DNA from: Cyanidioschyzon merolae
Taxonomy: Eukaryota
Reading direction: 5' to 3' (one strand)
NCBI GenBank assembly: GCA_000091205.1
Contig: AP006501.2
Length of the DNA: 64,000 bases
Made by a program: the position numbers and the translations under genes. The notes beneath the pieces are model-generated. The model did no database searches and was not told the origin of the DNA. It was given only the letters and a program-made list of their open reading frames with translations. Below, in pieces: positions 18,706 to 59,033 of this stretch. Every line of letters begins with the position of its first letter. Position 1 is the stretch's first letter.

Positions 18706-20073
18706 CTCTACCCGTGTTCGTACAAAATGGAACGGGTGCGCGAACACAGGGGTGCACGCTAGAGCCTTGGTCTCTAGCTAGTGGTATCGACACCAGCGTC
18801 TGTGGCAACGCTGTGTGCGTGCTTCCTTTTCTGTTCACTTTCATGCGGTTGTATATTCTCCAGTGTACCCTTTTTTTGCAGATCCGTTCATAGCAGTCGA
18901 GAGACACTGCTAGTACTCTGAAAGTCCCAATATCGCTGGTCTCGGATGCCGTTCTCGCACCCTAGGCATAGAATGTCGTTGCGATCTAGACGCTGCATGC
19001 GAGAGTCATCGCCTTCGCATACAGACAGAGTGTACCACGCTCAGCGGTGACACGTCGCGGTACTCAGGGATTCCCGTATACCCACAATGCATCCCGTTCC
19101 GAAGCGCCGCCCTGTGCCGCGTGAGCACTTCCTTCGCCGTTCCGTGCATGTTGTTGACTGGTAAAGAAGGCTTCTGTCGATGCCTTCCTCCATTCCTGTG
19201 CCCGGTGACATGCACGATGATCACGGGCTCCATCTGGACGATTCCCGCGGCGAGTACGCTACCCGCTGGGCACGCAAGCGCACGCTGCTCCATGCGGTAG
19301 CGCAGCCATGGAATGCAGTATTGCCCGTGATGAAACAAGCACCTGAATGGAACTCCAGAATCGGGATCCAGGCGAGAAATCCAGGACGGTCCACGCTGCC
19401 TTCGTATGCGGCCGTGACGCGCTCATTAGTGGAACCGGTTGCGGCGATGACTGCAGCCCTCGTCCAGGACGCTATTCCATGCAAGCGGAATGCACAGAAG
19501 CTTCTGGGACCATACTTCGTGATGGGCAATGCTTGTGTCGGATCTCGGTTCGACGATAGCCACGGAGAGCGGCGGCTTTGTTTTTTCCAAATGGAACAGG
19601 CTTCCTGACGTAAGCGGTTCCATGAACTCGCCGCATGAGCCTGTGAATACGTCGCCAGCGGACATCGTCGCGTATTTTGTTTCCTCGTCAATCCAGAGAT
19701 CCGCATTGCTGCGTCCACGAGTTGCCTGAAACAGACACATCGAACACCTTGAAGAATGCGTGATTGACGCAGAGGCCAGGCAAGCAATCGAGAGGAATCG
19801 AGGCGACTGCACATGCGTGGATGATGGTATTGTTTTAATGATGCGAAACCCGTGATCGACGGCGCTGGAACTCATCATGATTCCGGTGGTGAAATCGAAT
19901 TGCAGCGTCAGGGAATCGAAGGAGCCTCCACGAAAACACGACCGAAAATATAAAATTCCGCATGCATCCCCAAGCTCTTGTTGCTCTACCTTGAACGTTG
20001 ATGCAGCCCAAGTAAAAAAGATCGAAAAATATCGAAAGATAGACGCAAAGCGTCTAATCCAATCGTCGATTTT
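18706..20073 (-). repeat. copy A1 of ~1.37-kb unclassified interspersed repeat (family A), inverted relative to A2
   Basis: Near-identical to 22581-23960 in reverse complement and to ~55425-56630 in the same orientation. Boundaries found by reading where the flanks diverge. The same sets of spurious ORFs recur in each copy. Confidence 0.85.
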
Positions 20074-21954
20074 ACACCAACATAGCTTCTAGCGAGCGCG
20101 TTCCTCATACCAACTGAGCACACACATAATCGCCCGCAAGGACGACGACACCGGTATGATCAGTAAAGCGATAAGCATTCTAGGACCATAGAGTCTATAT
20201 ATACAATCACTTACAGACGGCTCCTGGGCTTTTTCTGACCGGCCGAGTACTATCGGGTTCAGTTTCTCCCTGTACGCTTCGATCCTGAGAGTCTGACCCA
20301 TAAAGTTGGATCGCCTCAGCTCCTCGTGTCTCGTCTCCAGCGCCGCACATCGTCTGATACTGGTGGCCGCGTTGAACTCTCGGTTTTGCGAACGCTTTGC
20401 ATTTATTGACGCTACTTGAATGTACGTTTGGAACGATTGCCCGCACTCGTGCCCTCTGTGTCACCACAGTCTCGTCATTGTTCCGTCGGCCAAACACCTT
20501 TTCTCGTCTATCTTCCTATTCTGCTTCTGCTTCACATCCCCTTCTTCGCTAGCTGGTCGACGAGATGATGATATTTTCGATTTTTTGTCGAACCCGGCGA
20601 CACAGGACCTCAAGGATCCTCGACTTTCATATCCATACGGATCCCTTAGATTTTTTATTTCTTCAAAATGAGTACATTTATTGGTGCCTTTAGGCGAGTA
20701 TATTCCAGGAATATAAAGCACTTGCATAAGAAACACGTAATGTACCCCAGTGTCACCATGTGCTGGACGCTTCAGCGATTCGCTCAAGGGAGCTATCATT
20801 ACGTTTCACCATACAAAACACCCCTTCTATGAGGTCTAAACACGCAGAGCGCGGAAGAATGAAACGCAGCAGTATACCGCTAGAATCCGAAGAAAGCTAG
20901 AACGCAAGGACAATGGTGAAATACTACATTGTCCAATAGGAGGGCGTCGCCAGACCTCAGGAGAAGGTCTTCAATGATTCGACAAAGTGGTTGGTGCTGT
21001 TGGATGAGCCTTCTCGACGAGCGAAACTGAGGCCGCCAAATGAGTCTACCACGCCTAGCACGGATGATGTCGTCGTTTTCTTCAATTTTACGATCTTACA
21101 TACAACGAGCTCCCTCTCCCTGAATACCCAAACGCTCTACGACCGTTTCACCCGAAGCAAGTCTCATCGACTGAAAACACAAACCTACGTCCCTGTGCTT
21201 CATACCGATCGCAACGTTCCAAGAACGCTGTCACTGCTATTTAGGTGGAATATAATCGTAGGTGAAATTGGATTTTTGGGATTGTATCCTAGTGCTTGTC
21301 GAACTACACGAACAAGCTGTTCAGAGACAGAGACGCCCTTAGTGGCTACCATCGTGACTTTCGCTTTCTGTACGGTGGTCAACAGGTCGTTCTCTACCAC
21401 TGGCCGCTAGCAGTCTTTGAGAATAACCGTTTTTGGCACGGAGCACTGATACTTCTCTCTTTCAATGTCCCTCAACCATAAGAGTACTTTGGTATGACTG
21501 ACCTTATGAAAGAATGCAATTCTCCTTGCACTTTTCAGTAAATCACGTATCCTACATTGAATTCGTCCACGATTTAAACGGTACACTGCATCGTGCTTTC
21601 AATTTCCTGCTCGATGCACTGGAAAAAAAGCATTCGATGACAGGCAGCAGTTGTGGAGCACATCTGAGCTGAATGTGAAGTTAAGATACGAAGCATGCAC
21701 CGCGCGTGCGAACATTTGAAGATGGCGCTCGTGGCTACCCGCCTCGAGTACAGGTCAGGTCATCGCTCAGGCCGTTGCACACTGGCTACGCGCTTGACGT
21801 GCGGGCAAAGAACTGGAAACCGAGGTTCACTGGTGAGTGCACAACTTTCGTCGTTCGATTAAAAGGAACTTGAGAAGCGCGCACGTGACGACCGGTTTGG
21901 CGTCGCCTTCGGAGACGCTTCACCAGGGCGATATCTGCTCCTAGATGGTTATCG

Positions 21955-22557
21955 GTGATGACTCTTTCGGGAGCGTCGTCGTCTAAGGAAGCCCGCTTGC
22001 GGAGCCTTCTGCTCAGCTATGAAGACGCTGAACGCAAGCGAGGAAACCCGGTTCCCTGGCTGAAAACGGAGGAGTTGCGGTCACTCCTGGAGACTGCCGG
22101 CGGGGAGCGGCGCGTCATTCTTATTGACGTTCGTGAAGAGCCGGAGCGTCGGGTCTCTGTCCTTAGAGGCGCGCTCTCGCCTGCACAGATAGAAGGGCTC
22201 TTGAATACCCCAACGACGAGTGAGAACAGTGCCGCGCGGAACAACCTCTCCACGGATACGATGCTTCTGGTTCCGTACTGCACTGCCGGCGTCCGCAGCG
22301 CAGCATACGCCAAATCCCTAATGGCGCAGTACCCTCAATGGGCCGCATGCGTTCGGAACGGAGAGGGTATTATCCGTGCAACTTACGTGATTCCCGAATA
22401 TATTGTGGATCCTGTATCTGGGAAACCCACGAGCAGCGTGCACGCTTATGGGGCAAAATGGGATCTCGCGGCGCCATCGTTCGAAACCGTCCTCTTTTCG
22501 CAGTGGGAGCGACTAGCGCGCACCCTGCGCCCGCCGAGTGGTCGTCTGCATCTGTGA
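21955..22557 (+). CDS. single-domain rhodanese-like (sulfurtransferase-type) protein
   Basis: 200-aa ORF. RVILIDVREEPE...CTAGVRS shows a CX4R rhodanese catalytic loop (6-residue loop, sulfurtransferase type). Confidence 0.68.
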   Translation: MMTLSGASSSKEARLRSLLLSYEDAERKRGNPVPWLKTEELRSLLETAGGERRVILIDVREEPERRVSVLRGALSPAQIEGLLNTPTTSENSAARNNLSTDTMLLVPYCTAGVRSAAYAKSLMAQYPQWAACVRNGEGIIRATYVIPEYIVDPVSGKPTSSVHAYGAKWDLAAPSFETVLFSQWERLARTLRPPSGRLHL

Positions 22558-22580
22558 CGGCACCAGTACCTTAGGGCCCG

Positions 22581-23960
22581 TTATCAGGTGAAAATCGACG
22601 ATTGGATTAGACGCTTTGCGTCTATCTTTCGATATTTTTCGATCTTTTTTACTTGGGCTGCATCAACGTTCAAGGTAGAGCAACAAGAGCTTGGGGATGC
22701 ATGCGGAATTTTATATTTTCGGTCGTGTTTTCGTGGAGGCTCCTTCGATTCCCTGACGCTGCAATTCGATTTCACCACCGGAATCATGATGAGTTCCAGC
22801 GCCGTCGATCACGGGTTTCGCATCATTAAAACAATACCATCATCCACGCATGTGCAGTCGCCTCGATTCCTCTCGATTGCTTGCCTGGCCTCTGCGTCAA
22901 TCACGCATTCTTCAAGGTGTTCGATGTGTCTGTTTCAGGCAACTCGTGGACGCAGCAATGCGGATCTCTGGATTGACGAGGAAACAAAATACGCGACGAT
23001 GTCCGCTGGCGACGTATTCACAGGCTCATGCGGCGAGTTCATGGAACCGCTTACGTCAGGAAGCCTGTTCCATTTGGAAAAAACAAAGCCGCCGCTCTCC
23101 GTGGCTATCGTCGAACCGAGATCCGACACAAGCATTGCCCATCACGAAGTATGGTCCCAGAAGCTTCTGTGCATTCCGCTTGCATGGAATAGCGTCCTGG
23201 ACGAGGGCTGCAGTCATCGCCGCAACCGGTTCCACTAATGAGCGCGTCACGGCCGCATACGAAGGCAGCGTGGACCGTCCTGGATTTCTCGCCTGGATCC
23301 CGATTCTGGAGTTCCATTCAGGTGCTTGTTTCATCACGGGCAATACTGCATTCCATGGCTGCGCTACCGCATGGAGCAGCGTGCGCTTGCGTGCCCAGCA
23401 GATAGCGTACTCGCCGCGGGAATCGTCCAGAAGGAGCCCGTGATCATCGTGCATGTCACCGGGCACAGGAACGGAGGAAGGCATCGACAGAAGCCTTCTT
23501 TACCAGTCAACAACATGCACGGAACGGCGAAGGAAGTGCTCACGCGGCACAGGGCGGCGCTTCGGAACGGGATGCATTGTGGGTATACGGGAATCCCTGA
23601 GTACCGCGACGTGTCACCGCTGAGCGTGGTACACTCTGTCTGTATGCGAAGGCGATGACTCTCGCATGCAGCGTCTAGATCGCAACGACATTCTATGCCT
23701 AGGGTGCGAGAACGGCATCCGAAACCAGCGATATTGGGACTTTCAGAGTACTAGCAGTGTCTCTCGACTGCTATGAACGGATCTGCAAAAAAAAGGTACA
23801 CTGGAGAATATACAACCGCATGAAAGTGAACAGAAAAGGAAGCACGCACACAGCGTTGCCACAGACGCTGGTGTCGATACCACTAGCTAGAGACCAAGGC
23901 TCTAGCGTGCACCCCTGTGTTCGCGCACCCGTTCCATTTGGTACGAACACGGGTAGAGGC
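22581..23960 (+). repeat. copy A2 of family-A repeat; begins 24 bp after the rhodanese stop codon
   Basis: Reverse-complement match to A1 along its whole length. ORF-track proteins in A1 and A2 differ by only a few residues. Confidence 0.85.
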
Positions 23961-24307
23961 TCAAGTGTACGAAAAATTCGCACAGCTCCTGTGCCGAAGA
24001 TTATATATATACCTAAAAATACATTTTAATTCCAATTTATACAGGTTCTGCAAGTCGACCTCGTCGACCACACGGCACCATCGGCGCGCGCACTGACGAA
24101 CACGTGGCTCAACTGCAGCGTCCGCATGTCGGCCGCATCTGCACAACGCCGCTGCATTTCAAAACGAGCCAGCAGCGCTCCTGGCATGGGACGTCTGCAT
24201 CGCCGCTTCGTTGCGACGTGGCAACGCCTGCGCGAACCCGAGAACGGGACGCGAGGTGCTCACGCGTGCGCCGCGAGCGCTCCTCTGTGAACAGCTTACC
24301 TCGTTGA

Positions 24308-24913
24308 GTGATCTTTTGCGTCTTCTTGACTTGTACAATGGATACCTCGCTCGTTTTCAGTAGCTCAGCTGACGTTTTCGGTGTGGACGTTAGGTACACG
24401 TACAAAGTTGATGACAAAACGAACTTTGTACTGCGTGGACTAGCGAACAAAGAAAAGCCTAAACCTTTCGATCACCACTCGGGAGAGTATATCCGGGGTT
24501 GCCTGGTGCATCACTTCCGCACCGTTCCCGACTGGCCAGTGGATGTGAAGCTAATTGCCTGGGCTGCGCAGGGTAAGAACCAAGACCGCTGGGGCGTTAA
24601 AGCCGTCGCTATGAAAACGCTCGCCGTTGATGAAGATACAAAAGCAGAAGCGCGTTTGGTGTTTTCAAATCGCCCCCTAGCGGAGAACCGCAATAGTCTG
24701 CTCTATGGAACGCTGAAACGTACCTTCCGTATTGCCGACGATGAATGGGTGGGCGGCCTCCAGTGTCGCACGGACGGACGTTGCGTTCTCGGGGTTCGGA
24801 ACGGAATGCTGAGCGTCCAAAAAGTGCTTTCCCAGGGTGGACCGACTGGTGAGCCTGGCGAGTGGCGGGCCAAGTACTCTCTCAGTGGTAATGCACCTAG
24901 GCTCTTCTTCTAA
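24308..24913 (+). CDS. hypothetical protein (no recognised domain)
   Basis: 201-aa ORF with coding-like, non-repetitive composition in a gene-sized gap. Probable start at an internal Met (MDTSLVF...). No family recognised. Confidence 0.4.
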   Translation: MIFCVFLTCTMDTSLVFSSSADVFGVDVRYTYKVDDKTNFVLRGLANKEKPKPFDHHSGEYIRGCLVHHFRTVPDWPVDVKLIAWAAQGKNQDRWGVKAVAMKTLAVDEDTKAEARLVFSNRPLAENRNSLLYGTLKRTFRIADDEWVGGLQCRTDGRCVLGVRNGMLSVQKVLSQGGPTGEPGEWRAKYSLSGNAPRLFF

Positions 24914-27628: not shown

Positions 27629-27796
27629 TCCAGTACGTCAGGCATCGAGGTCTCACGAGGGAGCCCTTGTCGGCTTGAAAATGCATTGCATCGAGCCGAT
27701 GCTCGAGCAGGCATCGCGAAATTGGTGTTTCTTTCTAGGACGCGGACGGCAGGACGCACGATGCCGTAACAGTATCCGGGGATAGGCTTGGATCTT

Positions 27797-27835
27797 GCAG
27801 GGTCGGTCGGTCGATCGGTCGGTGGGTCGACTGAC
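27797..27835. repeat. (GGTC)n-like microsatellite
   Basis: gggtcggtcggtcgatcggtcggtgggtcgactgac read directly. Confidence 0.8.
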
Positions 27836-29694
27836 CCCTGATGCAATTGGAGAATACCGCCATTGGCCAAGAGCATGGACGCGTCCGCAAAAGAGGTGAG
27901 GTCGACGCCGCGTTCACCATCGGCTCTCGGGGACTCTTGTGCTTCTGGTTCGCACACTTGATCCTGCGGCATCCGAACTTGGCTCGAGTGAACAACGCCT
28001 CGAGCCGACGCCCTCTGTGCTATAGAAAAGCCGTTCTGTCTCCATGCAGCGACCGCACCCGCACTATAGGAGCCATTGCGGTCGCTTTCGGCAGGCTCGG
28101 CACACGATAGAACGTATGAAACGACCAGAATATCCGAGAAAAAGTACAGGTAATGTAACGTGGAGGTAGAATATTTGATGGATACTTCACCGCGCAATGA
28201 AAAAACACAAAAAGAAAGGAGAACGCGCACAATCGGAGAACGCTGGCCTAAGTAAACGTTTAGTCAAATTTACATCCGACCTTGGCTGCTCTTGCTTTGG
28301 GAGAGCTCTCAACTCGCACAGGTGATATGGAGCACGCAAGGAAGAGAATCACTGGCATCCCTGGTCGTGTCGGAACTTGCATCCTTTCGAGATGCAGGCA
28401 CACAGATACCGCATTCCAAAGTCGTTGCCAACGGCAAGTGATGCACAGATTTCTTTGTGACATCTCGAGTATTCGACGGATCCTGAACCTGTAACGGGAA
28501 GTTTGCAGCTCTGGGATCGCTTCGAGGCCAGGTTGCGCCCCCCTCCCGGCACCGTTTCTCATGAAGGCATGCGCAGGCGCTGCCTCGCACTGACGAACAT
28601 CATGGGCACTTTGAGCCGTGCTCTCTCTGTACGGCCGCTGGTGCGGCCGGCATCATAGTCAGGTTCGGCATCCTCAGGATCTGGGTTGTTGGACCGATGG
28701 AACCCCGTGTTCCTGACCGAGAGGCTGGACTTGAGCGTATGGAACTTAGTCATGCCAGGAGGAGAAGGATGGCTTATTCCCTGCTCGCCGGTGTATACTG
28801 CATGTCCAGGGTTCCCGGCTAGGTGTATCGACCATGAAAAATGCTTTGACCCTCGTTAGGTCTCAGCTCGTAACCCAACCAGCGTCGCTACAAGAGCGTC
28901 GCGCTCTCCATGATAGGAATAGGGGAACAACTGCCCATGAGCATCAGAAACAGGATTCAGGGATCCTGCGTAACATTCGTTGATCCCGTACCATGAAATA
29001 AATCCGCCCTTGAGCCGTACAAGCGGCAGATGAGGCGTTGCGAATGCCCGCAAGCCGGAAGAACAAGGACCTTTGAGATATTTTATGTGGGCACGCGGGC
29101 TAGGGTACGAGACGCTGTGCATTCGCCCAGAGCGGAGGGGTTCCGCGAACCTGCCTTGCGCGTTGAGTACACTGCTACATAACCCCCGGATGCAAGTTTC
29201 GCTTTGTATTGGAAGCGACGAATCCAGCGAATTCGGTACAACAGAGCGAGGCGGTATTGCCAGGCGTCTTGCGGGAGCTGCTTCCGGCAAGACGCACGCC
29301 TACGCTGCTCGCGCATCCACATAAAAAGTCCCGCGTCTTTTTCTCCAGCTCAGTACTCTTTCCTGATCTTTACATTCAACCCTAAAGTCATCTGCGAGAA
29401 GCAACAAAGTTCCTCATAGCCGCACAGCGACACGAAAATTACTCTTTGACTCGCGAAAATCTCCCCCGTAACTTAATTGGGCATACAAATACGCACCAAG
29501 GAGCGAGACGACGAGATTCAGTACCTTGAACGCGCCGAGTAGGATCACGAGCGAGGACGCTCTCTAGGCTGCTCGCTGTGTTCGACGGCAGTGACTGCAT
29601 CTGCGCTGCGGAAACAGCCTTCGCTGTAGCTCCGTACCGCGACGCTGCGCGCAAATGAGACGTAGCGTGCTGGTCCCAGACACGGCACGCGTGT

Positions 29695-30837: not shown

Positions 30838-31114
30838 GCTACCAGTGGATATCGATGGGATGCCTGGACGGCGGACGCGCTTGCGGTGATCGATGCATCG
30901 ATTTTCCGCCTAGCGCAGACAGCCACTTCCGCCTCTGCCAACGGGGTGGCGCATCGACAGAGCGACGACCTCACCGCCGCCGCGGCCGCCCAGCGAACGT
31001 CCACAAGGTGAATCCAGCATGCGTTGCTAGGTGATGCGCTGGAGGCGTTTTCGCCAATCGCATGCAGCATCGCGTGTTTGGCGCAGCCCGATGCCGCAAA
31101 TCCCTTGAAGCAAT

Positions 31115-31152
31115 GGCGGTGGCGGTGGCGGTGGCGGTGGCGGTGGCGGCGT
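31115..31152. repeat. (GGCGGT)6 hexanucleotide microsatellite
   Basis: ggcggtggcggtggcggtggcggtggcggtggcggcg read directly. Flanked by cgcgacgcgaggcgacgcgatg. Confidence 0.9.
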
Positions 31153-31749: not shown

Positions 31750-32814
31750 GAGGGCGCGTTCCGTGGCAGGCTGTTGCGCACAGATAGGTTGCTGTCGCGC
31801 GCCTGGCTCTGTCCCAGGTCTCGGACGATGGAGTGGAGCGTTTCGGTTGACCCAGTGCTATCGCAATGTCTCCAGGAAATGTAAAGCAATAGAAAACTTT
31901 TGAGCAGGTACCTTCAGGAATCCGTAGAGCCCTTGCTGCTGTTTCGTGATCCCACGTCTCCCAGATGACAGGTCAGGGGGCGGTTGCATCGGGAATGCGG
32001 TGGCTGAACAGGATGCCGGTCGTCGATCCGGTGGATACGCTTGCCCGCTAGCCGAGTCCAGATCCGAGTGAACGATTTCGTTTGCAACTGGAGACCGCCT
32101 TGCACTGCATTCATGCTGTGACAGTGAAGATTCCGGGATTCCGTAACTGCGCTCGATCGCAGTGATGTTGCAGCTCGCGGCAAAAGACGTCTAGCGACAC
32201 CACCACGGACGCACGCTCACGAATATCGATGCTGAAAGAGCAGCTGTGGTTCCATGTCGGTTTTTCGGAAGAGTTCAAATATGGCAGGCGACGAGCGTTG
32301 CCAGCGTTGGATACCCTAGAGAGAACGACAACAGGGAAGCATACGAGTCTAGCGTACCGCGAACGAATATCAAGTCCGTCCCTGGCCTATCCACTATTGC
32401 GCAGATGGACGTGGGCACCAGATCGTTACACCCGTGAGCAAATACTTCTCCATGTCGTTGTCTGTAAAGCCTGCGCCTTATAATTCTATCAAGAACCATG
32501 AAAAGACATACGCGAAGAAATCAAGCCTTACAAAGGGCCGCAAAACATCAACGCCATCTGTGTCGTCGCAAAGCACCTACGCAGAAACCCGTCATGGCCA
32601 TAGCACGATCCTGTGGCACCGAGACTTGGCATCCATTGTTATGTGAAGGCAGATATTCCATGAATTCTACCAGACCCATGTCAGAGGAACATGGAACGTG
32701 TCTACTCTGCTGACTCGGGCGTACAATCGAAAGTTTGGGACTCTTTTTAATGCCATCAGCACCAATATTCGCCGAATTTTGCGTGACTGCTTCTTTTTGT
32801 GTTTCATGTCCCGA

Positions 32815-34050
32815 TTTAGATACGCAGGTGTCTCTCGTGTACCGCCAGATCCATTGCCAACAGTCGAAAGATGATGTACGCTTTCAAGTCCTGATTCCGC
32901 TGCTTCCGGCTGCCGTTCATGGAGTACGAGGACCAGGGAAGACAACGATTTTCGCATTGCTTTTCATCTTTCATCTCGCTTGTATTCACCCTCGGTGCGC
33001 CGCTCACAACCGTGACACATGACTGAGGTCAGCAGTTCCTCTGCTGCACAACACGCTCTCCTCCGAATGCCGCCCTGGAGCGCGTGAACGCCTCGTTCAT
33101 CGCTCGCGAGATGCCCATGGCGAGCACAGAAGGCCACCCGCGTTGCCGTCCTCTGTTTCAGCACCCAGTACGGTACCCTGTGATCACGGGCTTCTTCGGG
33201 ATGATCCCCAGTGTACCTGGTGTGTTTGCGGTACGCGCAAGCACATGCTGTCGCCGTCAATAGATGGTGTGCGGAACCCGCTCATGCCCCCGAGGGATCA
33301 CGTGCCGGAAGGCGAATCGGGCCCGGAGACCCGATCGAGCGGGTGTCGCAACGTCGACGCTCCCTTCGTGCAAGGCGGTGACGTGTGATCGGTTGGATGC
33401 ATCCGGTACAACGAATCAAGTCCGAACTCCAGACTCTTTTCCGTACAAGTAGATTAGCGGGAAGCCTCTGAGAGCCGATGCCCTGAGAGCTATCACGCTT
33501 CTGTCGAGATCCGTTTTGTCGCTGAGTTCACAGAGACTAGGACTTGCGTTTCGAACGGAATCGTTGATTAGATGTGATTTGTTCAGGAAACGCTCGGAAT
33601 GCACTTGTGCACACATCGTCAGGGCACGACGTCGCGCTCGTTCCCCAGTGCATCCAGCGCCGCGCATTGCCGCGCCCACGAGTTGATTCAGAACTGAGAG
33701 AAGATCGAAAACGTGCACGAACGCGTGAGCCTCTCATGCAGCATGTGAGGAATGGAGAAGAACAGAGGCTTTCGCGTACGAGCTGGATGACGACACTGGT
33801 TATTTTACGAATCGCTATTCGATGAAGTTGCGAAATATCTTGAGTTCCAGTGACTCGACGAATTCCAGTAGCAATGGTTCGAGGTCATTTTGCGGAAAAA
33901 CGGCGACTGGGAACGCTAAACTTACGCATGAGTCCGTAAGCCCTGCTTGCTCTACGTCGAATATCGATGCTGTTCATCTAGAACAAGTTCGGAAAACAAT
34001 CCCCAGGCAGAAAGAGGTCACCCATTCAAGTGTTCTTTCCGAATGGAACA
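32815..34050 (+). repeat. copy B1 of ~1.24-kb repeat (family B, distantly related to family A); ends ~200 bp upstream of the PrxQ start
   Basis: Near-identical to 38011-39250 (offset ~5196 bp), starting at tttagatacgcaggtgtctctcg. Identity decays gradually after ~34030/39230. Confidence 0.85.
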
Positions 34051-34257
34051 CGATTGTATGCTCTGCGCAGCGTTGCTGCAGCCGTTTGCTGTACGCGCCA
34101 GTCGTACCTGCATATAGCCGCATGGCATTGCGCTGGATGCGCCGCTTCAGCGCACAGCGTCTGTTGCGCAGATCGCCAGCTGCGGCGACACAGCGAGATG
34201 CGGGGCGCGCACTCAGGCCGATACCTGCGTCGCTGTGGTACCCGTTGAACGAGGAGC

Positions 34258-37256: not shown

Positions 37257-38010
37257 ACCCGCCATAACATTGGACATTGTCAGTCATGTACAACGCTGAA
37301 ATGAGGCGCCAGATGTGCATGGAGTCCGCAAACAACATCTGATAGCGCTCGGGACGCTTAACAAGAGTCAGCGACCAGGAAATCATCCTAGTTCTTGATC
37401 ATTTCAAAACATTTGTCAACGAAACCGGGTCCTGCACGCTGGTTATTTTTCGCGCGAGGCTGTACTCGCTCCATGTACTGTTCCGTTGCAGCGTCACGAA
37501 TGCGGAATTTTCACGAGCGAATCTGAACAGTCTCTGTGCGATACACGGCTTTCAGTTAACCAGCGAGCTCTGTCCGTGCACTGCGCTTGCTCTACGCTTC
37601 ACGGACTGCGCAGTCGGCCAACTGCCGCCGGTGTGCGTTCAAACTTTGGGTGAACAGCGCAAGCGACCAGCGTATCAGGCATAGTGCTGAAGTCAAACTG
37701 AACGACGCAACGCTCTGTAACTGAGAATCAGCTCCGCCGATTCAGGGAGATGCACCCAAAGAAACGGTGAAAACAACGTAAAGAATCGAAGGGCTCTCAG
37801 ACCGACGTGGCGTTGGTACGCACTGGCTTGATGAAGCGCTCGTAACAGTAATCGAATGCAGTTACACGAGTGCCAGACTACAAGGAAAACAGTTCCGCTT
37901 AGCTAACTCGGGTGTACGAGCGAAAGCTTGCGCTGTTTCCAACTGTCATCAGCGTCAGCCTTGCGAGCTTTCTCTGCGACCGCTTCCTTTGCCTCTCTTG
38001 TATCTGCGGC

Positions 38011-39250
38011 TTTAGATACGCAGGTGTCTCTCGTGTACCGCCAGATCCATTGCCAACAGTCGAAAGATGATGTACGCTTTCAAGTCCTGATTCCGCTGCT
38101 TCCGGCTGCCGTTCATGGAGTACGAGGACCAGGGAAGACAACGATTTTCGCATTGCTTTTCATCTTTCATCTCGCTTGTATTCACCCTCGGTGCGCCGCT
38201 CACAACCGTGACACATGACTGAGGTCAGCAGTTCCTCTGCTGCACAACACGCTCTCCTCCGAATGCCGCCCTGGAGCGCGTGAACGCCTCGTTCATCGCT
38301 CGCGAGATGCCCATGGCGAGCACAGAAGGCCACCCGCGTTGCCGTCCTCTGTTTCAGCACCCAGTACGGTGCCCTGTGATCACGGGCTTCTTCGGGATGA
38401 TCCCCAGTGTACCTGGTGTTTTTGCGGTACGCGCAAGCACATGCTGTCGCCGTCAATAGATGGTGTGCGGAACCCGCTCATGCCCCCGAGGGATCACGTG
38501 CCGGAAGGCGAATCGCGCCCGGAGACCCGATCGAGCGGGTGTCGCAACGTCGACGCTCCCTTCGTGCAAGGCGGTGACGTGTGATCGGTTGGATGCATCC
38601 GGTACAACGAATCAAGTCCGAACTCCAGACTCTTTTCCGTACAAGTAGATTAGCGGGAAGCCTCTGAGAGCCGATGCCCTGAGAGCCATCACGCTTCTGT
38701 CGAGATCCGTTTTGTCGCTGAGTTCACAGAGACTAGGACTTGCGTTTCGAACGGAATCGTTGATTAGATGTGATTTGTTCAGGAAACGCTCGGAATGCAC
38801 TTGTGCACACATCGCTAGGGCACGACGTCGCGCTCGTTCCCCAGTGCATCCAGCGCCGCGCATTGCCGCGCCCACGAGTTGATTCAGAACTGAGAGAAGA
38901 TCGAAAACGTGCACGAACGCGTGAGCCTCTCATGCAGCATGTGAGGAATGGAGAAGAACAGAGGCTTTCGCGTACGAGCTGGATGACGACACTGGTTATT
39001 TTACGAATCGCTATTCGATGAAGTTGCGAAATATCTTGATTTCCAGTGACTCGACGAATTCCAGTAGCAATGGTTCGAGGTCATTTTGCGGAAAAACGGC
39101 GACTAGGAACGCTAAACTTACGTATGAGTCCGTAAGCCCTGCTCGCTCTACGTCGAATATCGATGCTGTTCATCTAGAACAAGTTCGGAAAACAATCCCC
39201 AGGCAGAAAGAGGTCACCCATTCATGTGCTCTTTCGGAATGGAATCCAAT
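38011..39250 (+). repeat. copy B2 of family-B repeat; ends ~50 bp upstream of the ETF-beta start codon
   Basis: See B1. Embedded ORF-track proteins differ from B1 by single residues. Confidence 0.85.
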
Positions 39251-39300
39251 CGGATGGGTGGCACGGCCGCGCTGCTGCTTTTCCAAAGAACAGACAACAT

Positions 39301-45956: not shown

Positions 45957-46012
45957 GAACAGACCAACGCCCGAGCGGAGAAGGATTCGAAGTGCTCCTC
46001 AAAGGGCCCAAC

Positions 46013-46036
46013 GAGACACACACACACACACACACA
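46013..46036. repeat. (CA)11 dinucleotide microsatellite
   Basis: cacacacacacacacacacacc read directly, ~60 bp upstream of the coiled-coil gene start. Confidence 0.9.
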
Positions 46037-48890
46037 CCAAAACGTGCAACTCCTGTCCTGTAGAAGTTAGCAACGCTTTCGTTTATCCTTTGCGGAAGGC
46101 GCGTGCGCGTCGCTTCACGGGAGCACGACAGGCGACCCGCGTATCGACGCCGGCATCGCGTGTTGCGCTGTGGCGATTTGAAATCAGCGCGCGCTGCCGT
46201 GCCTCGCAATGGACGTGCCCTGCTAGACGCAGTTGACAACTCGATCTATCTGTATTTTTCTCGAGTTCCTTGAGGAACGGAAAATTCAGGAAGCAGACGG
46301 GACGTCCTGGTTTGGATTCGCATCCTAAGGTGTAGCATTCATGAGTCGCAGTAGAGGGTGGTATACCGCGCATGTCGACGTTAGACGGTAAAACGATCTT
46401 CGTTGCCCTCTGAATGCTTCTGCGAAGTGCGAGCCGCGGCGCAAATATAGGTCCAGGAGCCGAAGCAAACGAAAGAACTATCGAGTCTTAAAAAGCGAAT
46501 TTCGATGAAAATGGGGCAGTGAACTGCTCGTTCTCTTCGTGGCTATCGATATTTTTAGACATCGGTTTTCAAGAACATCCTCGATATTCTATGTGCAGCG
46601 AATAAGGATTGTCGGATTCAGATGCAGTTTTTTTCTTCGGATTCAAAGTCGAGTTTTTGGAGTGGCTCTTTCGATGCTTTGTCGCTAAAATTTGAGATGC
46701 TGCCAGCTTCAAGGCGATTCGCGACGCCCACGAACAAGCGATCGTAAGATGACCGATGCTCGTTTCCAAGTCAAATGTCCTTGGCTCTGCTCTTTTCCGT
46801 TCCTGACGTGTCCCATGCTCAAAGAACGCATTCTTCTAGGTTTCAATCGTTATATTTTCAACGAAACTCGTGGACGTTGCCATATCCGCTCATGGATTTC
46901 CGAAGGAAACTATGCAACGTCGTCTCGCGACGCGCTTTTGATAAGCTCACACCCAAAGTTCATGGAGCGCGCACACGTCAAATAAACGATTCCGTTCGGA
47001 AGACATATCCTCCTGTGTCGGTGGCAATTGCCGAAACTGCACGCGACAGCAGCATTATCTCTCTCACCGCTTACGTTAGATTAGGCTCCCGGCTCTTCTG
47101 TTTGCACGGGAAATGGCCGTGGACTCGAACTTGCGGCCTAGCAGCGATTGCTTCCAATGGAGCATGTGTCAGCGATTGCAGGAAATTAGCGTAGACGGAT
47201 CGGAATTTCTGGATTTGGTCTCCATCCAGGTTTTTCCTCCCAGTACTTGTTTCATCCTAGACAGCATCGCGTGCCACAAATCCTCTGTCGAATGGAACCT
47301 CGTTCGCTCGCAGCAGACAGCGTGCTCGCCAACGGAAGCGCCCTGAATACACCTCTGATCATACGATATAGCGCAGGGAATGGAAGCGAAAAGCCTTGAG
47401 TAGCGCCCTCTGTACACTGCAAGGGCATGTATCGCGTGACGAAAGCGAGCCTGCCCAGGCCATGGGTGGTCCTCGGAGCAGGAGCACGTGCGGTGGACCA
47501 ATTGGAACACCTCACAACTGCCAAGTGTCACCGTTGCAAAGTGCGCAACGAGGCTGTACGCAAAGAATATGAAAATCGCCAGCGGAACATAGACTGGAAC
47601 TTCCGCCCGTGCAGTGTATGCGTCGACAGCCGCCAGATGCTGCGAAATTCGGATGATAACGCTGCCACCAATATCCGTCGACTGCTGACACGCGAGCCGG
47701 ACTCAAACAAGCGGGTGGTTATTGAAAGCCGGATCTTTGAGATAAGAAACCGAAGCTGGCGTGGAAATCCGCCTCAAAGGCTGGTGTTGACGGCAATTGC
47801 AAGACATCCAAACGTTGTTATGCACGCTCACATTGGGGGGGGGGACCTATTCCTTGCTACTCAGATGCATTTTTGTTGTGGACGCCCAAGTCAGCAAAGG
47901 GGACTCTTTCCATTTTATTCTGACGTGGAAATAGGTTTGGGTGAGCGAATAACGCGCCGAAAGTCGATATTAATCGCGTACCCAGGTCAGTCTGGCTCGG
48001 TGCATCGTTTCTAAACCGCAAAACCAGGACCACACACCTGTGGTATCCGGGGGAAGCTGCTAGTGCCGCAAATCATTTACACCGCATAGAATTCGCCGGG
48101 CAGTCTGATACGTATGTTTCAGGGCCAGAGCAGGGGCTCTTCTGTGCCGAAGGCTTCACGGACATTACCTAACGAGACGCGAGCATACCACCCAGACACG
48201 TCCATGAAACCCATTCGACACGTAATGCGTGGATACCTGTCCCAGTTTGATTCACCCCCGCATGCACAGCATGCAATACGGAGCTGGTATCCGCAAACCG
48301 CATCCTCGAAAGCTTCTTCTTCTTCGTTGTCCTATTCACTTGTGAAAGTTATACAAAAGCGACCCGAATACTCCAACGCCTTGTTCTTCAAACGAAGGTG
48401 CAGCTCTCTTGTCCCGTGCTACGATCCGGTAAAGACGGATATCGCTCGAATCCGATGCAGCGACTGCAGGCGCCCGCGTTAGGAGTGCGCTCTCTCCATG
48501 GGACCAGCGTAAACGCAGCATCATCTTGAGGAGCATCGCACACTGGGTGCGTAAAGCGCGGGATACTGCAGATTGCCGCTGGTGCGAATCCAAGCCAATC
48601 TGGGCAATGATACGTGGTCTACGAATTCAAGTCAGGATGGAGCATGCTTCATGTGTGCTGCTCCCGAAAAGTCGCTTTTCTAACGCGGTCACTCGGTGCA
48701 CCTCGTCCTGCAAATCGGTGAAGCGACCCAGCGGCATCATTCCTCACAACCCTCTGGTCCTAACTTGATTCATTTGGAATCAGCGATACCATCGCCAGTG
48801 ACGCGCAACAAGCGCTTACACGTTCTACCGGCAATACGAGCAGCGAGCAGCTCTTCCGCGCTGCTACGTTTCACGTGCTAATTACCGCTC

Positions 48891-50486: not shown

Positions 50487-52984
50487 GATCTATCTTGGCA
50501 CTCAGTACAAGCCGTGTTCGACTATTCTGTCGTTCTGTGCGTCGATTACTCGCTATTTTTGCAGCGACGTCAATCAGACTAAGAATACCTAGTTGCGTAG
50601 GCAGGTACAAAGAGCGATACAGAACTGTCAAGGCCAGGGCCTCGCCTAGTGCCGATAACCAGTCGATACGAATGGTGCGGTGCGCGCTGTCGAGCACTGC
50701 TGTGCTGCGCTGCGCTGTGCTGCCGCGGCGGCGATGTCCACAGATGTGCGAAAAATTCCAGAGCGCCGCATCGAAAGCACAGCGGGCGCGCGTCTCTCAC
50801 GAATACCGTACGGGATCGCTGCATCTTCGGTGCGGAAGGCTCGAGTGCGCGCGATGGCGATCGGTTTTCAGGGCAGTCATCACTACTGCGATCCAGAACT
50901 TCAAAGTTCCACGATCCGCAAACAGGGCCTCATTTAGGACAAAGAGGCTTTAAGGGTTGCGCATTCGATATAGTATCCACTGTGGAGGAATTCTGCATCG
51001 GTGGGCAACCAAAGCACCTCTATCGCAATGTTCGTGTTCGTACGCGGGTTGCTGGGAGCATAAGCACCCTCGCAGTGAGCATACTGCGATTCCTGGACCC
51101 TCCAACGTAAATATTGGATCTATATGGAATTGTCTACCTTGACAAACTATCCTTCTGGAACGGCTTCCGCGGGACTCCGCGCGTCACCCACTACGCTGAG
51201 AAGCAGCGGCCTCGAATGAACTTGCGCTTGCACGAAGCGCCCTGAAAACAAACATCCAGCCGCGGCTTGGAGTCAGCCGAGCAGGCATAGAAGCGCATCA
51301 AAACTCGATCCGTCTAGGCCGCGAGCGCGTGTATGCATGATTTTCTTGGGCAGAGTGGCAACGTCCTTCACTTTGGTGGAAATGTTACGATTTATAGTGC
51401 AGACGAACGGAGAAAGCTGTTCTCCAGTGTAAGTCCTGTGTTAGATAGTGCCAGTAGGCTTTTTGGCGCGAAAGAGTCGAATGGCGCGCTCGAATGGCGA
51501 GACGAGGATCGAATCTGCGATCACAACACACCAGACGAGCGCTTTGGAGCATTTGGGAGCATCGGCATCCTCGCGGGTGCTTCTGTATCCGCAGAACGCG
51601 TACTGTGGAGCAGCTCAGCACGCAGGATGCCGCTGAATACCACCTCTGTTCTTCGAAAGAGAGTTTTGCTGAGGTTCATGGAAGCATGCAGCGTCTGTTA
51701 AGGAGAGATTCCAAGTTTTCCCTGGTTGCCTGCAGTATTCGCGCACAGGGAAAAAGGATTTGACTGATGGATCATTCACCGTAAAAAACTGCCTGTGCAG
51801 CACGCGGACGTTGCTGGGGAGCGTCCAGTTCCATTCGAAAAAGCAGCTCGCTAACAGATTCCGGAACCGGAGGACGCATACGGCAATATGTAGCGAAGGA
51901 ATCCGAGATCCTGTATTGTTTCTGCCATCGCATTGATGCGTCTGTGTTCGTGTCGATGACCGAGTCGTAGACACGGTATTCAAGTATGAAGTATACGCAG
52001 TAATAGAGAATCATGGGGTACCGTTGTCGTTCACCGAGTGCCCAGGACATATCCCCCAATGGAAACAATCGTCGCTCCGACCCCGGTTGGATTGCTGAAG
52101 CGCACCTAACCGGTACTTCACTGTGGCGAGAATCGGATTCCTTCGCTCCTGGATACTAATATTTAGCACCGAACGCCGGCAGTCGCTCAGCATGATGCCC
52201 ACGCTGCTCGCTAAACCATTCCCTGAAAAGCTCACTCGACAGGACGACGATGCGGAGCGCCCCTGCGAAGACTGGATATCGCTGCATGGGTGCACGTGCA
52301 CAAAAATGCCCAACGCTGTGTATGTATGGTACCACACCCTGTGGATCGCGCAGCACCAACAGGCACTTGTGCGCTTTTCTGCTTTGGTTTGCAAGATGAA
52401 ACCGTTTATATAGACGAATGCTGCGCGCGGCCCTTTGCACAACCAAATACAATGCTCTTCATGCCGTGTGAGAGACGCTTCGCTGTGTGTATTGCCATGA
52501 AATGAAAGCAATCGACTCTATGATGGTGAAGCTCGTTATGCTGATCGTCGCGGCTGCGCGGAATATTCCCGACAGCCTTGGAAACCGTGGCAGCGATGCG
52601 GTCTCAGAACTTCACGGTTCGCGAAATGCCCAGGTGACCATGAAGCAGCATGGTGTGACGAATGTGCTGTCGAATATGTTCGTCGCTGTTCGTGCTGGGC
52701 ATCATCGTGACGCGATTCCGGTCAAGGATCCCACTCGGGGGGAACAGCACTTCCTGTACAATGCCACAGGCGCCCGCGGATGACGCCCACAAGGTGTCTG
52801 CCTTTCGTGTCTGCCCGGATACGGATTTCTCCGGGCACCCAGATCCACCGAGGTCATACTTGGGGTAGCGAGCATGTATACTCCGTTTCGTATCTTCATC
52901 AAATAATCGGCATCGCACAGGAGTCCGCACGTTTGACGCTACGCGGGAGCGTCGGTATCACCGTTGTGGAGAAGCAACGACATC

Positions 52985-54736
52985 CTACCCTGTGCTATTC
53001 AGGTAGAGCTCACGGAGATACGTCAAAAGCCCGTGGTGGGCATCGGGAACATCCTTGAACGACGGGAAATAATTCAAATCCACAACATACAACGCACCGT
53101 CAACAACACTTCGAAGAACATCGAGCCCAAAAAGTGTCACATGCAAATTCTGCATGACGAGTCGTACGAGGCAGGCAGCGTCAGCCGGCGTCGGTGGCTC
53201 GGGATACCCACCGTCAGTGGCGATGCGGTCCGTGGCTCGAATTTGCGGCTCGGAGACAGCACACTTTCCAAAGTCGTATGTGTTCAGGATTCTATAACCT
53301 CGATCGGTGCCTCGTGGAATTGGCAACGTGCTTCGCGCATGAATAGACACCTGTTTGTCACTGCCAAGCACGTAAATCTTAAAGACAGCCTCACCGTGCG
53401 GGACGTACTCCTGGAGGTACACCTCATCACCAGCAAAGAGCCTGCTCGCATTCGAGTCTCGATGGTGTCGGGAAGCAGGCTCTGAGGTGAGAAGCCTCTC
53501 GAGACCATCCTCATCATAGACCAAAGCAATGTCATGGGAGGAACGCGGTCCACATGCAGTTCGCCGTTTCACTACAAGTGGAAAATGCATCTTCGCTAGT
53601 CGGCAGGCCTGTAGCCAGGGTATCGCACGCTGGAATTCGATGGTTCCCCATTTCGTTTCGTAGAACGAACCCTCTATATCAAGATCCGCATCACGTCTCG
53701 ACGCTGTCTCAGGACAAGGATTTGTTGCGGGATCAGTCAGGCCGCCCGATACAGGGCCCTGCTCACAGCCAGCAGGCCCCGCGGCTCCGCCGTTGCCAAA
53801 CCTAGCATTCAGCGTCGTACGCTGTTGTCGGGTGAACGCTTCACTAGCTGCTCTGGAAAACGTCCGTGCACCACGGTCCGCGGAACCCGCACACCATTTT
53901 GTTAGGCGAATCACAGAGCTGTGACCGTCTAGAATACCGCTGGCACCAGCAAGCGTCCCATGCTCATCAGCGGCCTGCTCTGATGCGAGCAAATGGTCCA
54001 AAACACTGCTAAATAGCGTGCGATCCGTCAACGTCCAAACAGCGTCCACAGGGTCGACAATAACTGGTCTTCGACCACGAATGCGCTTCTGTACTGCGAA
54101 CGCTTTGAAGCTACGTTCGAGCGCTGCCAGCCTCCGCTGTGCGTTCTTGTCGCCTCGTTGCGCCATTACCATATCATCGGTACGTTTGTGGATCACCATA
54201 TCCCAACATTCTGGACAATAAGCAAGGGGTTCTCGCTGTTTCTTTTGATTGTTTTCGAGGGCATACGGACCTTCTTCGAGATCCATCTCCACCAGGAGAA
54301 TAGGTCTCAGAAAAGCTCTTTGATACTCAGTATTCGCGTTTGCCTCCGCTGATGTTTGAAAGCGTTCTTCCTCACATAATGCAAGCTGTTGAAGAACGTC
54401 GAAAAAAGGCTTCTGCTTCTTTGTGTTGCAAGTATACGCAACAACGATGGGAGCCTGGACCCCTTCAGTGCGCACCAAACAGGTACGCATATGCCCTTCC
54501 GTTTTAGAAGCCTGGCTTGGGAGCAGCGTCGCAGGTTTTATCGCTTCGGCGCCAGGTACAGCTGCCTGTGGTGAGGTATCCGCGTTTTCACTCTTACCGT
54601 CCTCGTCTGGCGTTCGCTTGACCAGGTCGGGGCGCTCGCGGCCTGTTCGACAGCGCTCTAGCGAGGTACGCGCTCGACGCGCCTCTGCAGACGCGCCTTC
54701 TCGACGCCGCGACAGACCCGTGGTGGCCGGCATCAA
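52985..54736 (-). CDS. ITPK1: inositol-tetrakisphosphate 1-kinase / inositol 1,3,4-trisphosphate 5/6-kinase (ITPK1, ATP-grasp) with N-terminal extension
   Basis: 583-aa ORF. ATP-grasp kinase blocks LQEYVPHGEAVFKIYVLG and LFGLDVL...ALYVVDLNYFPSFKDV, plus the ITPK1 N-domain PVIVDPVDAVWTLTDR. Confidence 0.82.
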   Translation of the reverse strand: MMPATTGLSRRREGASAEARRARTSLERCRTGRERPDLVKRTPDEDGKSENADTSPQAAVPGAEAIKPATLLPSQASKTEGHMRTCLVRTEGVQAPIVVAYTCNTKKQKPFFDVLQQLALCEEERFQTSAEANANTEYQRAFLRPILLVEMDLEEGPYALENNQKKQREPLAYCPECWDMVIHKRTDDMVMAQRGDKNAQRRLAALERSFKAFAVQKRIRGRRPVIVDPVDAVWTLTDRTLFSSVLDHLLASEQAADEHGTLAGASGILDGHSSVIRLTKWCAGSADRGARTFSRAASEAFTRQQRTTLNARFGNGGAAGPAGCEQGPVSGGLTDPATNPCPETASRRDADLDIEGSFYETKWGTIEFQRAIPWLQACRLAKMHFPLVVKRRTACGPRSSHDIALVYDEDGLERLLTSEPASRHHRDSNASRLFAGDEVYLQEYVPHGEAVFKIYVLGSDKQVSIHARSTLPIPRGTDRGYRILNTYDFGKCAVSEPQIRATDRIATDGGYPEPPTPADAACLVRLVMQNLHVTLFGLDVLRSVVDGALYVVDLNYFPSFKDVPDAHHGLLTYLRELYLNSTG

Positions 54737-55424
54737 TGAGCTCCGCTTCCGATGTAAACGTTATCCATAAAAACTTACAGAGTAAAGCCTCAAGTGTGCT
54801 GAAAGGTTGAATACGACCTCACTTTCACTTAAAGTAGGATCAAACCCGCAGCACCGGTGCGCAACTTGTCAAAAATTGTCGAGCTCCGGGAACTCACCAC
54901 GGCTCTGTTACAGTGAGCAAGATGCGTCCGTGCGTCCAACAAGAGACTCGTGGTCAAGTTGTTTATCCGATCGAGTAACGAAGACACGCTCGGGCGAAAG
55001 AAAGCGCTTCAAGAAGAGGCTGTGTATTCGGGATATTACAATTGGTGTACACCGTTTTGAAGGGGCATGCGCGATACCGATACCCATACAGCGCGATACA
55101 GCGATGACGAGAACCTGGTGCGTCGCTGAAGCTAAAGTTTGGGCCTCTTCAGAGCTGTTCACTAGTGCTGCTTGCTTGCACTATGGGGCATGCGTCAGCG
55201 AGACATGAGCAACTGCTAGGCGGGAGCGCGCTGAACGACGACCGCCATAGACGCTTTACGGTTCGTGCACTTCCCAGCTTGTCTTACGCTCATGCGAGAC
55301 TATGAAGGGATGGGTCCAGCAACTCGGATACACACTCTAAAGTTGGTATCTCTTGCTATTATCGTCAAGACAAGGCTTCTCGGGGTTTTCTGAGACAACA
55401 TCTTTTTCATCTTCCTTACCTTTC

Positions 55425-56630
55425 GGTGTATATTCTCCAGTGTACCTTTTTTTTTGCAGATCCGTTCATAGCAGTCGAGAGACACTGCTAGTACTCTGAA
55501 AGTCCCAATATCGCTGGTTTCGGATGCCGTTCTCGCACCCTAGGCATAGAATGTCGTTGCGATCTACACGCTGCATGCGAGAGTCATCGCCTTCGCATAC
55601 AGACAGAGTGTACCACGCTCAGCGGTGACACGTCGCGGTACTCAGGGATTCCCGTATACCCACAATGCATCCCGTTCCGAAGCGGCGCCCTGTGCCGCGT
55701 GAGCACTTCCTTCGCCGTTCCGTGCATGTTGTTGACTGGTAAAGAAGGCTTCTGTCGATGCCTTCCTCCATTCCTGTGCCCGGTGACATGCACGATGATC
55801 ACGGGCCCCTTCTGGACGATTCCCGCGGCGAGTACGCTACCCGCTGGGCACGCAAGCGCACGCTGCTCCATGCGGTAGCGCAGCCATGGAATGCAGTATT
55901 GCCCGTGATGAAACAAGCACCTGAATGGAACTCCAGAATCGGGATCCAGGCGAGAAATCCAGGACGATCCACGCTGCCTTCGTATGCGGCCGTGACGCGC
56001 TCATTAGTGGAACCGGTTGCGGCGATGACTGCAGCCCTCGTCCAGGACGCTATTCCATGCAAGCGGAATGCACAGAAGCTTCTGGGACCATACTTCGTGA
56101 TGGGCAATGCTTGTGTCGGATCTCGGTTCGACGATAGCCACGGAGAGCGGCGGCTTTGTTTTTTCCAAATGGAACAGGCTTCCTGACGTAAGCGGTTCCA
56201 TGAACTCGCCGCATGAGCCTGTGAATACGTCGCCAGCGGACATCGTCGCGTATTTTGTTTCCTCGTCAATCCAGAGATCCGCATTGCTGCGTCCACGAGT
56301 TGCCTGAAACAGACACATCGAACACCTTGAAGAATGCGTGATTGACGCAGAGGCCAGGCAAGCAATCGAGAGGAATCGAGGCGACTGCACATGCGTGGAT
56401 GGTGGTATTGTTTTAATGCTGCGAAACCCGTGATCGACGGCGCTGGAACTCATCATGATTCCGGTGGTGAAATCGAATTGCAGCGTCAGGGAATCGAAGG
56501 AGCCTCCACGGAAACACGACCGAAAATATAAAATTCCGCATGCATCCCCAAGCTCTTGTTGCTCTACCTTGAACGTTGATGCAGCCCAAGCAAAAAAGAT
56601 CGAAAAATATCGAAAGATAGGCGCAAAGCG
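55425..56630 (-). repeat. copy A3 of family-A repeat (slightly truncated or diverged at both ends), between ITPK1 and the UBE2J-like gene
   Basis: Same-orientation match to A1 from gtatattctccagtgtacc to cgaaagatag.cgcaaagcg. Contains the same spurious ORF set as A1 and A2. Confidence 0.82.
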
Positions 56631-56679
56631 AGTCATTCCATGTTCCATTATAATCTGACATGAGTGTAGGCAGGCACTG

Positions 56680-59000: not shown

Positions 59001-59033
<33 letters not shown>

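Follow-up and report, generated by a model that had tools for sequence, protein, structure and literature searches.

Interspersed repeats on chromosome 19 of Cyanidioschyzon merolae: a probable old, non-autonomous Tc1/mariner/IS630 transposon family with a Fanzor remnant

A 64,000-nt stretch of the Cyanidioschyzon merolae genome (assembly GCA_000091205.1, contig AP006501.2; hereafter the window) contains three nearly identical copies, A1, A2 and A3, of an interspersed repeat of about 1.37 kb. Exact protein matches (BAM82890-BAM82907) assign the window to chromosome 19 of strain 10D. The repeat, here termed family A, can be identified with good confidence as an old, abundant and non-autonomous DNA transposon of the Tc1/mariner/IS630 superfamily that carries the remnant of a Fanzor gene, the near-identity of A1-A3 being most likely due to later conversion. 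The superfamily is assigned on the basis of terminal inverted repeats (TIRs), a TA target-site duplication and the remnant of a DDE_3 transposase. In the original prediction the repeat was unclassified, and a multicopy non-autonomous mobile element was one of several options. This option is borne out by the TIRs, the TA duplication and the decayed DDE_3 frame, and by its database matches the repeat belongs, at the superfamily level, to a known kind of transposable element.

The family is larger than the three copies that had been taken for the whole of it. A weak self-match tied family A to a second pair of repeats at 32709-34048 and 37902-39244. With a DNA profile of the A and B copies, nhmmer detects seven full-length copies and no fragments in the window (A1, A2, A3, B1, B2, C1 and D1; Table 1), four of them diverged from the original three. 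Together they occupy about 15% of the window, and their lengths stay within 1.35-1.39 kb. Seven more copies are found in about 103 kb of non-redundant sequence from other genome regions, which were reached via contigs carrying homologues of the CMe-1 Fanzor. Three of these seven copies (J1, K1 and M1) are truncated or interrupted, two of the three by insertions resembling the elements CMe-1A or TE-N2_CMe. A profile search of 1.84 billion cluster representatives yielded 225 mutually diverged fragments of open reading frames (ORFs) at E ≤ 0.001, which fits the presence of hundreds of decayed copies. A pattern scan of metagenomes returned mostly orthologues of the window and one new copy; it confirms the assembly, not the copy number.

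That the family has not been classified earlier is explained by the decay of its copies, none of which can be recognised alone. Pfam gave no match for five ORFs of the A copies, as the single copies are too decayed for it. An exact look-up did not find the ORFs of the repeat in the protein collection, and when 5.8 billion proteins were searched with the longest A frame, the only match was the same ORF in strains that are about 99% identical. Similarly, a distant blastn search of a plasmid collection with the family gave no match, and a PDB sequence search with both halves of the consensus gave no meaningful one.

In the 1,379-bp majority consensus, whose sense strand is the strand of A2, the remnants of two genes are found. 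The transposase frame opens at an ATG at sense nt 78 and leads through a helix-turn-helix (HTH) region into a DDE_3 domain containing the motifs FVAIDETEF and FIMDNIAFHKS. The consensus matches Pfam DDE_3 with 41 bits (cut-off 28.6; E 2.2e-10), the NCBIfam IS630 transposase at E 5e-17 (profile positions 20-238 of 299) and, weakly, the Pfam domains HTH_33 and HTH_Tnp_Tc3_2. The DDE_3 match ends at profile position 113 of 146: of the three catalytic motifs, the first (DE) and the second (MDN) are kept, and the third catalytic residue is missing. Between sense nt 782 and 797 the frame changes. The frame after this junction (QRALARAAD...VIIGYGTG...KCHRC...CMKC...NRDFNAAINI) ends at nt 1322-1324. 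It matches Pfam Cas12f1-like_TNB with 30.1 bits (cut-off 26.3; E 5.5e-7) and guided_TnpB at E 6e-4 in the NCBIfam scan, and it is collinear with residues 539-686 of the CMe-1 Fanzor (BLASTP). It comprises the last third of a Fanzor, from the RuvC-II-equivalent motif onward, with a zinc ribbon (CxxC...CxxC). The N-terminal two thirds, including RuvC-I, are missing, and with them a complete RuvC domain. Judged by its sequence, the C-terminal part is a Fanzor1/TnpB remnant, not a Fanzor gene. No copy has an intact frame with all catalytic residues as expected of an autonomous transposon; stop codons and frameshifts are present in every copy.

Both remnants are also recovered by routes that do not depend on the consensus. 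A 551-aa Fanzor-like protein, P0123, which matches the consensus in tblastn at E 9e-41 with about 80% identity from residue 317 onward, also matches all seven window copies individually at E 1e-6 to 1e-11. The diverged copy C1 is among them (E 1e-11) and matches the consensus of the N-terminal part as well. A protein profile built from decayed copies only retrieves intact DDE_3 transposases of about 320 aa (P0202, P0237, P0238, P0261 and P0270), P0202 at E 1.3e-12; the DDE_3 score of P0202 itself is 102 bits. The original prediction had seen no recognisable coding capacity and no DDE-transposase motifs in the repeat, and the consensus contradicts it on both counts. The check with hidden Markov models for a degenerate transposase is negative for the ORFs of single copies and positive for the consensus. 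Two ORFs that had been pointed out in the A copies, of 197 and 110 aa, correspond to the decayed transposase frame and the decayed Fanzor frame, respectively.

The ends of the consensus, GACCCATGTCAGAATAAAATGGAACA and CAGCCATGTCAGATTAAAATGGAACA, are inverted repeats that agree in 23 of the first 26 positions (24 of the 36 compared). The TIR motif, 5'-CAC.CATGTCAGA(A/T)TAAAATGGAACA, is roughly 26-30 bp in length and is also visible at both ends of individual copies. A TA dinucleotide is located exactly 6 nt outside the TGTCAG anchor at nine of 25 independent termini (P = 4e-8 at a window TA frequency of 0.0315), and at more termini if indels of 1-3 nt are allowed. A3 is flanked by a perfect TA on both sides. 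Neither TIRs nor target-site duplications had been recognised in the original prediction.

The 12 lineages from which the consensus was built form a star phylogeny, with pairwise identities of 53-59%. Each lineage is 69-74% identical to the consensus, about 71% on the whole, and the A copies, at 71%, are at the same distance from it as all the others. Along the element, conservation is even (0.67-0.80 per 20 nt); outside, it falls to the background level. Such a star phylogeny is explained by amplification in one burst and, together with the even conservation, is the signature that one old burst followed by neutral decay would be expected to leave in the alignment. The differences between lineages and copies have no codon (3-nt) periodicity, which indicates that there was no selection after insertion, as expected for post-insertion decay. 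A protein-coding gene family is ruled out, as this periodicity is lacking, the ORF translations are of low complexity and they align only as DNA would. ORFs do overlap on both strands, as had been described: stop codons are depleted in all six frames of every copy, with 7-22 per frame compared with about 20 expected from mononucleotide shuffles. The stacked ORFs that result from this depletion are called as hypothetical proteins by gene callers, for example P0073, P0119, P0122, P0124 and P0125. A long terminal repeat (LTR) retrotransposon, which belongs to the largest class in a published census of repeats in C. merolae, was also considered and rejected; the repeat finder reports no direct terminal repeats, neither the ORFs nor the consensus match a reverse transcriptase or integrase, and the ends are inverted.

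The near-identity of A1-A3 was measured in two ways. The repeat finder reports inverted arms at 18705-20073 and 22591-23959 (1369 nt, 99% complementary) and pairs 22584-23794 with 55448-56658 (1211 nt, 98%). In BLASTN, A1 and A2 are 99.42% identical over 1374 nt (A1 tract 18705-20078), A1 and A3 98.9% over 1204 nt, and A2 and A3 98.05% over 1232 nt. A1 and A2 are located 2.5 kb apart in inverted orientation, and the points at which A1, A2 and A3 depart from their unique flanks are visible in the three-way alignment. The original description of three copies that are almost identical over about 1.2-1.4 kb is in good agreement with these values (98-99.4% over 1.2-1.37 kb), and its strands and coordinates are correct apart from a few bases. 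The similarity of the copies is not due to chance. The labels A2 +, A1 - and A3 - correspond to the sense strand of the decayed ORF. For A3, the predicted range of about 55425-56630 describes the near-identical tract and falls short of the element, whose full length is 55287-56666.

The arrangement of the repeats is not an assembly artefact, since metagenome contigs with 99.2-99.5% identity to the window are collinear with it through the copies and the unique sequence flanking them. Contig L029 corresponds to window positions 10017-22921 and spans A1, the spacer and the start of A2; the contigs L021, L020, L024 and L010 are likewise collinear with the window through copies. The artefact that the original prediction had considered is ruled out by these contigs. 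A different picture is seen in JGI metagenome contigs from short reads (L001-L009), which lead from a rhodanese-like gene through the repeat to either the E2 gene or an inositol-phosphate kinase gene. Within the repeat, their paths change from one copy (A2, A1 or A3) to another, which may be due to chimeric assembly or to genuine inversion or recombination isomers between the inverted A1 and A2.

The tracts of near-identity end inside the elements. In a sliding comparison, A1 and A3 share an identity of 0.45-0.55 over 55287-55426 and of at least 0.95 from 18850/55427 onward, and the part of A3 that is about 98-99% identical to A1 and A2 is confined to 55427-56658. B1 and B2 change from 53-65% to about 99% identity at the same family position, so that in A3 as in B1/B2 the boundary is about 130-145 nt from the same element end. 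Between A1 and A2, the final ~10 nt of the other end are not the same. Beyond their tracts, A3 and B1/B2 continue into sequence that is still family-like, which implies old independent insertions at each site that were homogenised later. Gene conversion or ectopic recombination between linked old copies is most likely the cause of the near-identity of A1-A3 and of B1/B2, as judged from three cases. Among the explanations offered originally, gene conversion or concerted evolution is thereby the best one, given that the identity tracts end inside elements.

It is unlikely that the A copies, and B1 and B2, are recent transpositions of a still-mobile non-autonomous lineage, moved by a transposase from another locus in the genome. 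Both ends would be expected in a true transposition copy, but the tracts of A3 and B1/B2 omit 130-145 nt of one end, which is family-like but of a different lineage, and A1 and A2 disagree in the final nucleotides noted above. The A lineage is also decayed like all others, and its own two ends are poor inverted repeats. Such a scenario would account for the identity of 98-99.4% between dispersed copies, for an A1/A2 tract that nearly coincides with the element and for the intact TA/TA at A3, and eight transposase-related loci are reported in the genome (Nozaki et al. 2007, PMC1955436).

Somewhat less probable still are small segmental duplications unrelated to homology, inverted in the case of A1/A2, that each included an old element by chance. 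The short distance between A1 and A2, their inverted orientation and an identity that runs about 4 nt past the TA on one side would agree with a duplication, but the duplicated unit is the element and not its surroundings in three separate cases. Moreover, the sequence outside the A3 and B1/B2 tracts is homologous to the family, so that elements pre-existed at both sites, and the diverged ends with their own TA flanks suggest an independent old insertion at each site.

Very improbable is a functional unit under selection, be it the gene of a long non-coding RNA (lncRNA), a structured RNA or a module acting as promoter or insulator. All seven window copies being of full length, the length being kept at 1.35-1.39 kb and the sense 5' end facing the 5' end of the neighbouring gene in eight of ten informative cases, often within 0-200 nt, would be compatible with a function, but conservation is uniform and at the level of neutral decay, and truncated or interrupted copies (J1, K1 and M1) exist elsewhere. 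No copy matches Rfam in either the gathering or the E-value mode. The consensus folds to -75 and -93 kcal/mol on the two strands for 1.4 kb, close to the -43 to -70 kcal/mol of shuffled columns, and RNAalifold gives -44.7 kcal/mol with almost no covariation term (-0.87). A conserved fold was not detected anywhere in the element with RNAalifold; a model specific for omega RNA was not applied. A structured RNA is ruled out by the lack of an Rfam match and by folds close to the shuffled controls, which leaves the lncRNA and structural-repeat options of the original prediction unsupported. A tRNA scan found no tRNAs. The 5'-to-5' orientation is found for A3, B1, B2 and D1 in the window and for the loci L033, L035 and L038; A3, for instance, lies beside the E2 gene at 56680 and B2 beside the ETF-beta gene at about 39226. 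The orientation suggests insertion near promoters or retention there, but the excess is not significant (one-sided binomial P about 0.055).

An old Tc1/mariner/IS630 element homogenised by later conversion would have the following history. The ancestor of the family would have been an element of about 1,379 bp with TIRs of about 26-30 bp, inserted at TA like other elements of the mariner type. It may have arisen when a mariner-type element with a Fanzor gene lost internal sequence by deletion, which would have left the transposase-Fanzor chimera. The chimera could encode neither enzyme, because it is without the third DDE residue and without the first RuvC motif. Judging from the superfamily, a DDE transposase supplied in trans would have excised and reinserted the element. 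A single amplification burst would have been followed by neutral decay of all copies to about 71% identity with the consensus. Much later, the near-identity of A1-A3 and of B1/B2 would have been produced as copies on the same chromosome arm, by then decayed, underwent ectopic gene conversion or recombination with each other.

Several points weigh against this account. Conversion from a starting identity of about 55% is implausible unless the partners were kept similar by continuous exchange, and near-identical sets were seen in three instances only. A small inverted duplication would likewise agree with the A1/A2 tract, which takes in nearly all of the element and about 4 nt of flank (CCTC before TA). 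An autonomous full-length parent with both mariner and Fanzor genes was not found, and the contig of the closest intact Fanzor, P0123, has no IS630-type gene. Several TA assignments require indels of 1-3 nt. As the consensus was built from only 12 lineages, its exact termini and the junction are approximate. Finally, the density estimate, 14 copies in about 167 kb or roughly one per 12 kb, is drawn from the window and from loci bearing CMe-1A and may therefore be biased.

Table 1 Family A copies, their parts and related elements in the window (positions of the 64,000-nt window)
Feature	Position	Strand	Basis or remark
A2, full element	22576-23955	+	TIR anchors; full-length nhmmer match
A2, decayed start codon	~22653	+	approximate, from consensus map
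A2, IS630-like transposase frame	22685-23374	+	tblastn with N-part consensus, E 2e-38
A2, junction of the two frames	~23360-23372	+	approximate, from consensus map
A2, Fanzor-like frame	from ~23359	+	tblastn with P0123 matches 23359-23553, E 2e-11
A1, full element	18709-20088	-	repeat finder, BLASTN, nhmmer, TIR anchors
A1, transposase frame	19979-19290	-	match to N-part consensus
A1, Fanzor frame	19305-19111	-	match to P0123
A3, full element	55287-56666	-	TA/TA intact at 55285-55286 and 56667-56668
A3, diverged terminal module (3' end of sense strand)	55287-55426	-	outside the high-identity tract; 45-55% to A1, still family-like
B1	32673-34056	-	~55% to A; interior from ~32806 ~99% to B2
B2	37865-39252	-	same family as A
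C1, full length	5417-6769	-	nhmmer E 3.8e-139; ~55% to other lineages
D1, full length	46493-47873	+	nhmmer E 2.6e-130; ~55% to other lineages
CMe-1A relic, internally deleted	20214-20671	-	tail-to-tail with A1, in the A1-A2 spacer; not family A
CMe-1A fragment of the 5' region common to TE-N2_CMe	27988-28266	-	blastn

C. merolae is a model organism partly because its genome is described as very simple, with hardly any transposons and a single unusual repeat that resembles WSV486; H3K27me3 (trimethylation of histone H3 at lysine 27) marks repeats in it. The results suggest that an appreciable part of the C. merolae intergenic DNA is taken up by a second, older transposon family, which may be far commoner than this description would have it. 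With a usable consensus, repeat masking could be improved, as could the analysis of promoters and intergenic regions, the design of gene targeting and chromatin studies. For transposon biology in general, family A is the expected kind of element. It is of an ordinary kind and seems to represent a new, or at least poorly documented, family in C. merolae. With RepeatModeler, Cho et al. 2023 annotated 25.9% of the genome as repeats; 1,930 fragments with a total of 2.09 Mb were assigned to 'LTR', and 2,857 were left unclassified. Their 'LTR' class resembles family A in size and number; it is possible that the family was misclassified there or is contained in the unclassified fraction. Mikulski et al. 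2017 considered that unknown repeat types in C. merolae might be unreported. A bolder and rather doubtful proposal goes further: the chimera would be the dominant C. merolae repeat, with a copy number of the order of a thousand and about 10% of the DNA, its Fanzor part would stem from a lineage linked to giant viruses, and neighbouring copies would be homogenised by concerted evolution, the tract boundary being a recurrent one. If true, this would contradict the textbook figure of 0.7% transposons for the 'simplest' eukaryotic genome, and a Fanzor lineage on giant-virus-like contigs would point to exchange between virus and alga.

Other kinds of repeats are also present in the window. A tandem array with a unit of 67 nt (about 3.4 copies, 77-81% matches) is located at 2061-2291, in an intergenic region upstream of a biotin carboxylase gene. 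Short perfect microsatellites are found at 61949-61980, 13411-13437, 31114-31149 and 59001-59033; they comprise (GCA)n inside long ORFs and runs of the hexamers TGGCGG and GGCAAC.

The closest intact relatives of the Fanzor part are P0123 and P0121/P0120, which share about 80% identity with it over QRALARAAD...WEH.TT.KCHRCE and NRDFNAAINI. Unlike family A, they are full or differently truncated genes with an insertion of about 50 aa in the zinc-ribbon region, and neither an IS630-type gene nor the TIRs of the family are found near them on their contigs, which come from metagenomes. P0123 is encoded at 5569-7224 of contig L040, together with an RNA ligase, a 2H-SAK protein and a Peptidase_S74 protein. 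P0121 is found on L041 and L042, and L041 has the RNA polymerase subunit Rpb2 in a single ORF amid many ORFans. The P0123 and P0121 contigs have a GC content of 51-56% and a virus-like gene content, which suggests that they may belong to putative giant viruses of hot-spring algae. A scan of IMG/VR for relatives of P0123 yielded none.

Family A resembles Stowaway-type miniature transposable elements with inverted repeats (MITEs) and other deletion derivatives of Tc1/mariner elements in being non-autonomous, in its TIRs and TA duplication, and in a high copy number reached via a trans-acting transposase. Unlike MITEs, it is two to five times longer and retains recognisable remnants of two genes. 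In P-MITE, no MITEs are reported for C. merolae.

Among bacteria, the counterpart of Tc1/mariner is IS630. Nozaki et al. 2007 (PMC1955436) described eight class II elements in C. merolae that resemble bacterial transposases (E 0.071 to 6e-7) and estimated the share of transposons at 0.7%. The eight may be the best-preserved copies of family A, as such weak BLASTX matches are expected of decayed copies. If they are, the published count is too low by about two orders of magnitude.

A 3.2-kb C. merolae repeat resembling WSV486 (Nozaki et al. 2007, PMC1955436) is the Fanzor1 element CMe-1A (Bao & Jurka 2013, PMC3627910). CMe-1A and family A share the genome, the intergenic location, the derivation from Fanzor1 and a similar age (CMe-1A copies are about 80% identical to their own consensus), and they nest together in the window and in L037 and L039. 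In these two loci, elements of the CMe-1A and TE-N2_CMe types interrupt copies of the family. In the window, the relic between A1 and A2 matches CMe-1 residues 656-722 in tblastn (E 2e-13) and CMe-1A positions 2913-3083 and 877-968 in blastn. In contrast to family A, CMe-1A is reported without TIRs and has no transposase part, and the Fanzor C-termini share only 23% amino-acid identity, although NRDFNAAINI is identical. With the 3,169-bp CMe-1A consensus, blastn at word sizes 11 and 7 gave no significant match inside any family copy. Family A as a fragment of CMe-1A or TE-N2_CMe is ruled out by blastn and tblastn with the published consensus.

The closest known counterparts are the Fanzor1-carrying transposons of the Mariner/Tc1 type, for example PUl-1, which is 3,620 bp in length and has 24-bp TIRs and a TA duplication (Bao & Jurka 2013, PMC3627910). 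Family A has the TA duplication, TIRs of about 25-30 bp, and the combination of an IS630/mariner DDE_3 transposase with Fanzor1 sequence in one element in common with them. In contrast to them, it is only 1.38 kb long, combines about the first two thirds of a transposase with about the last third of a Fanzor out of frame and is non-autonomous, and all copies seen are about 29% diverged from the consensus. Family A would represent a second Fanzor lineage in C. merolae, tied to a mariner-type vehicle as in other eukaryotes.

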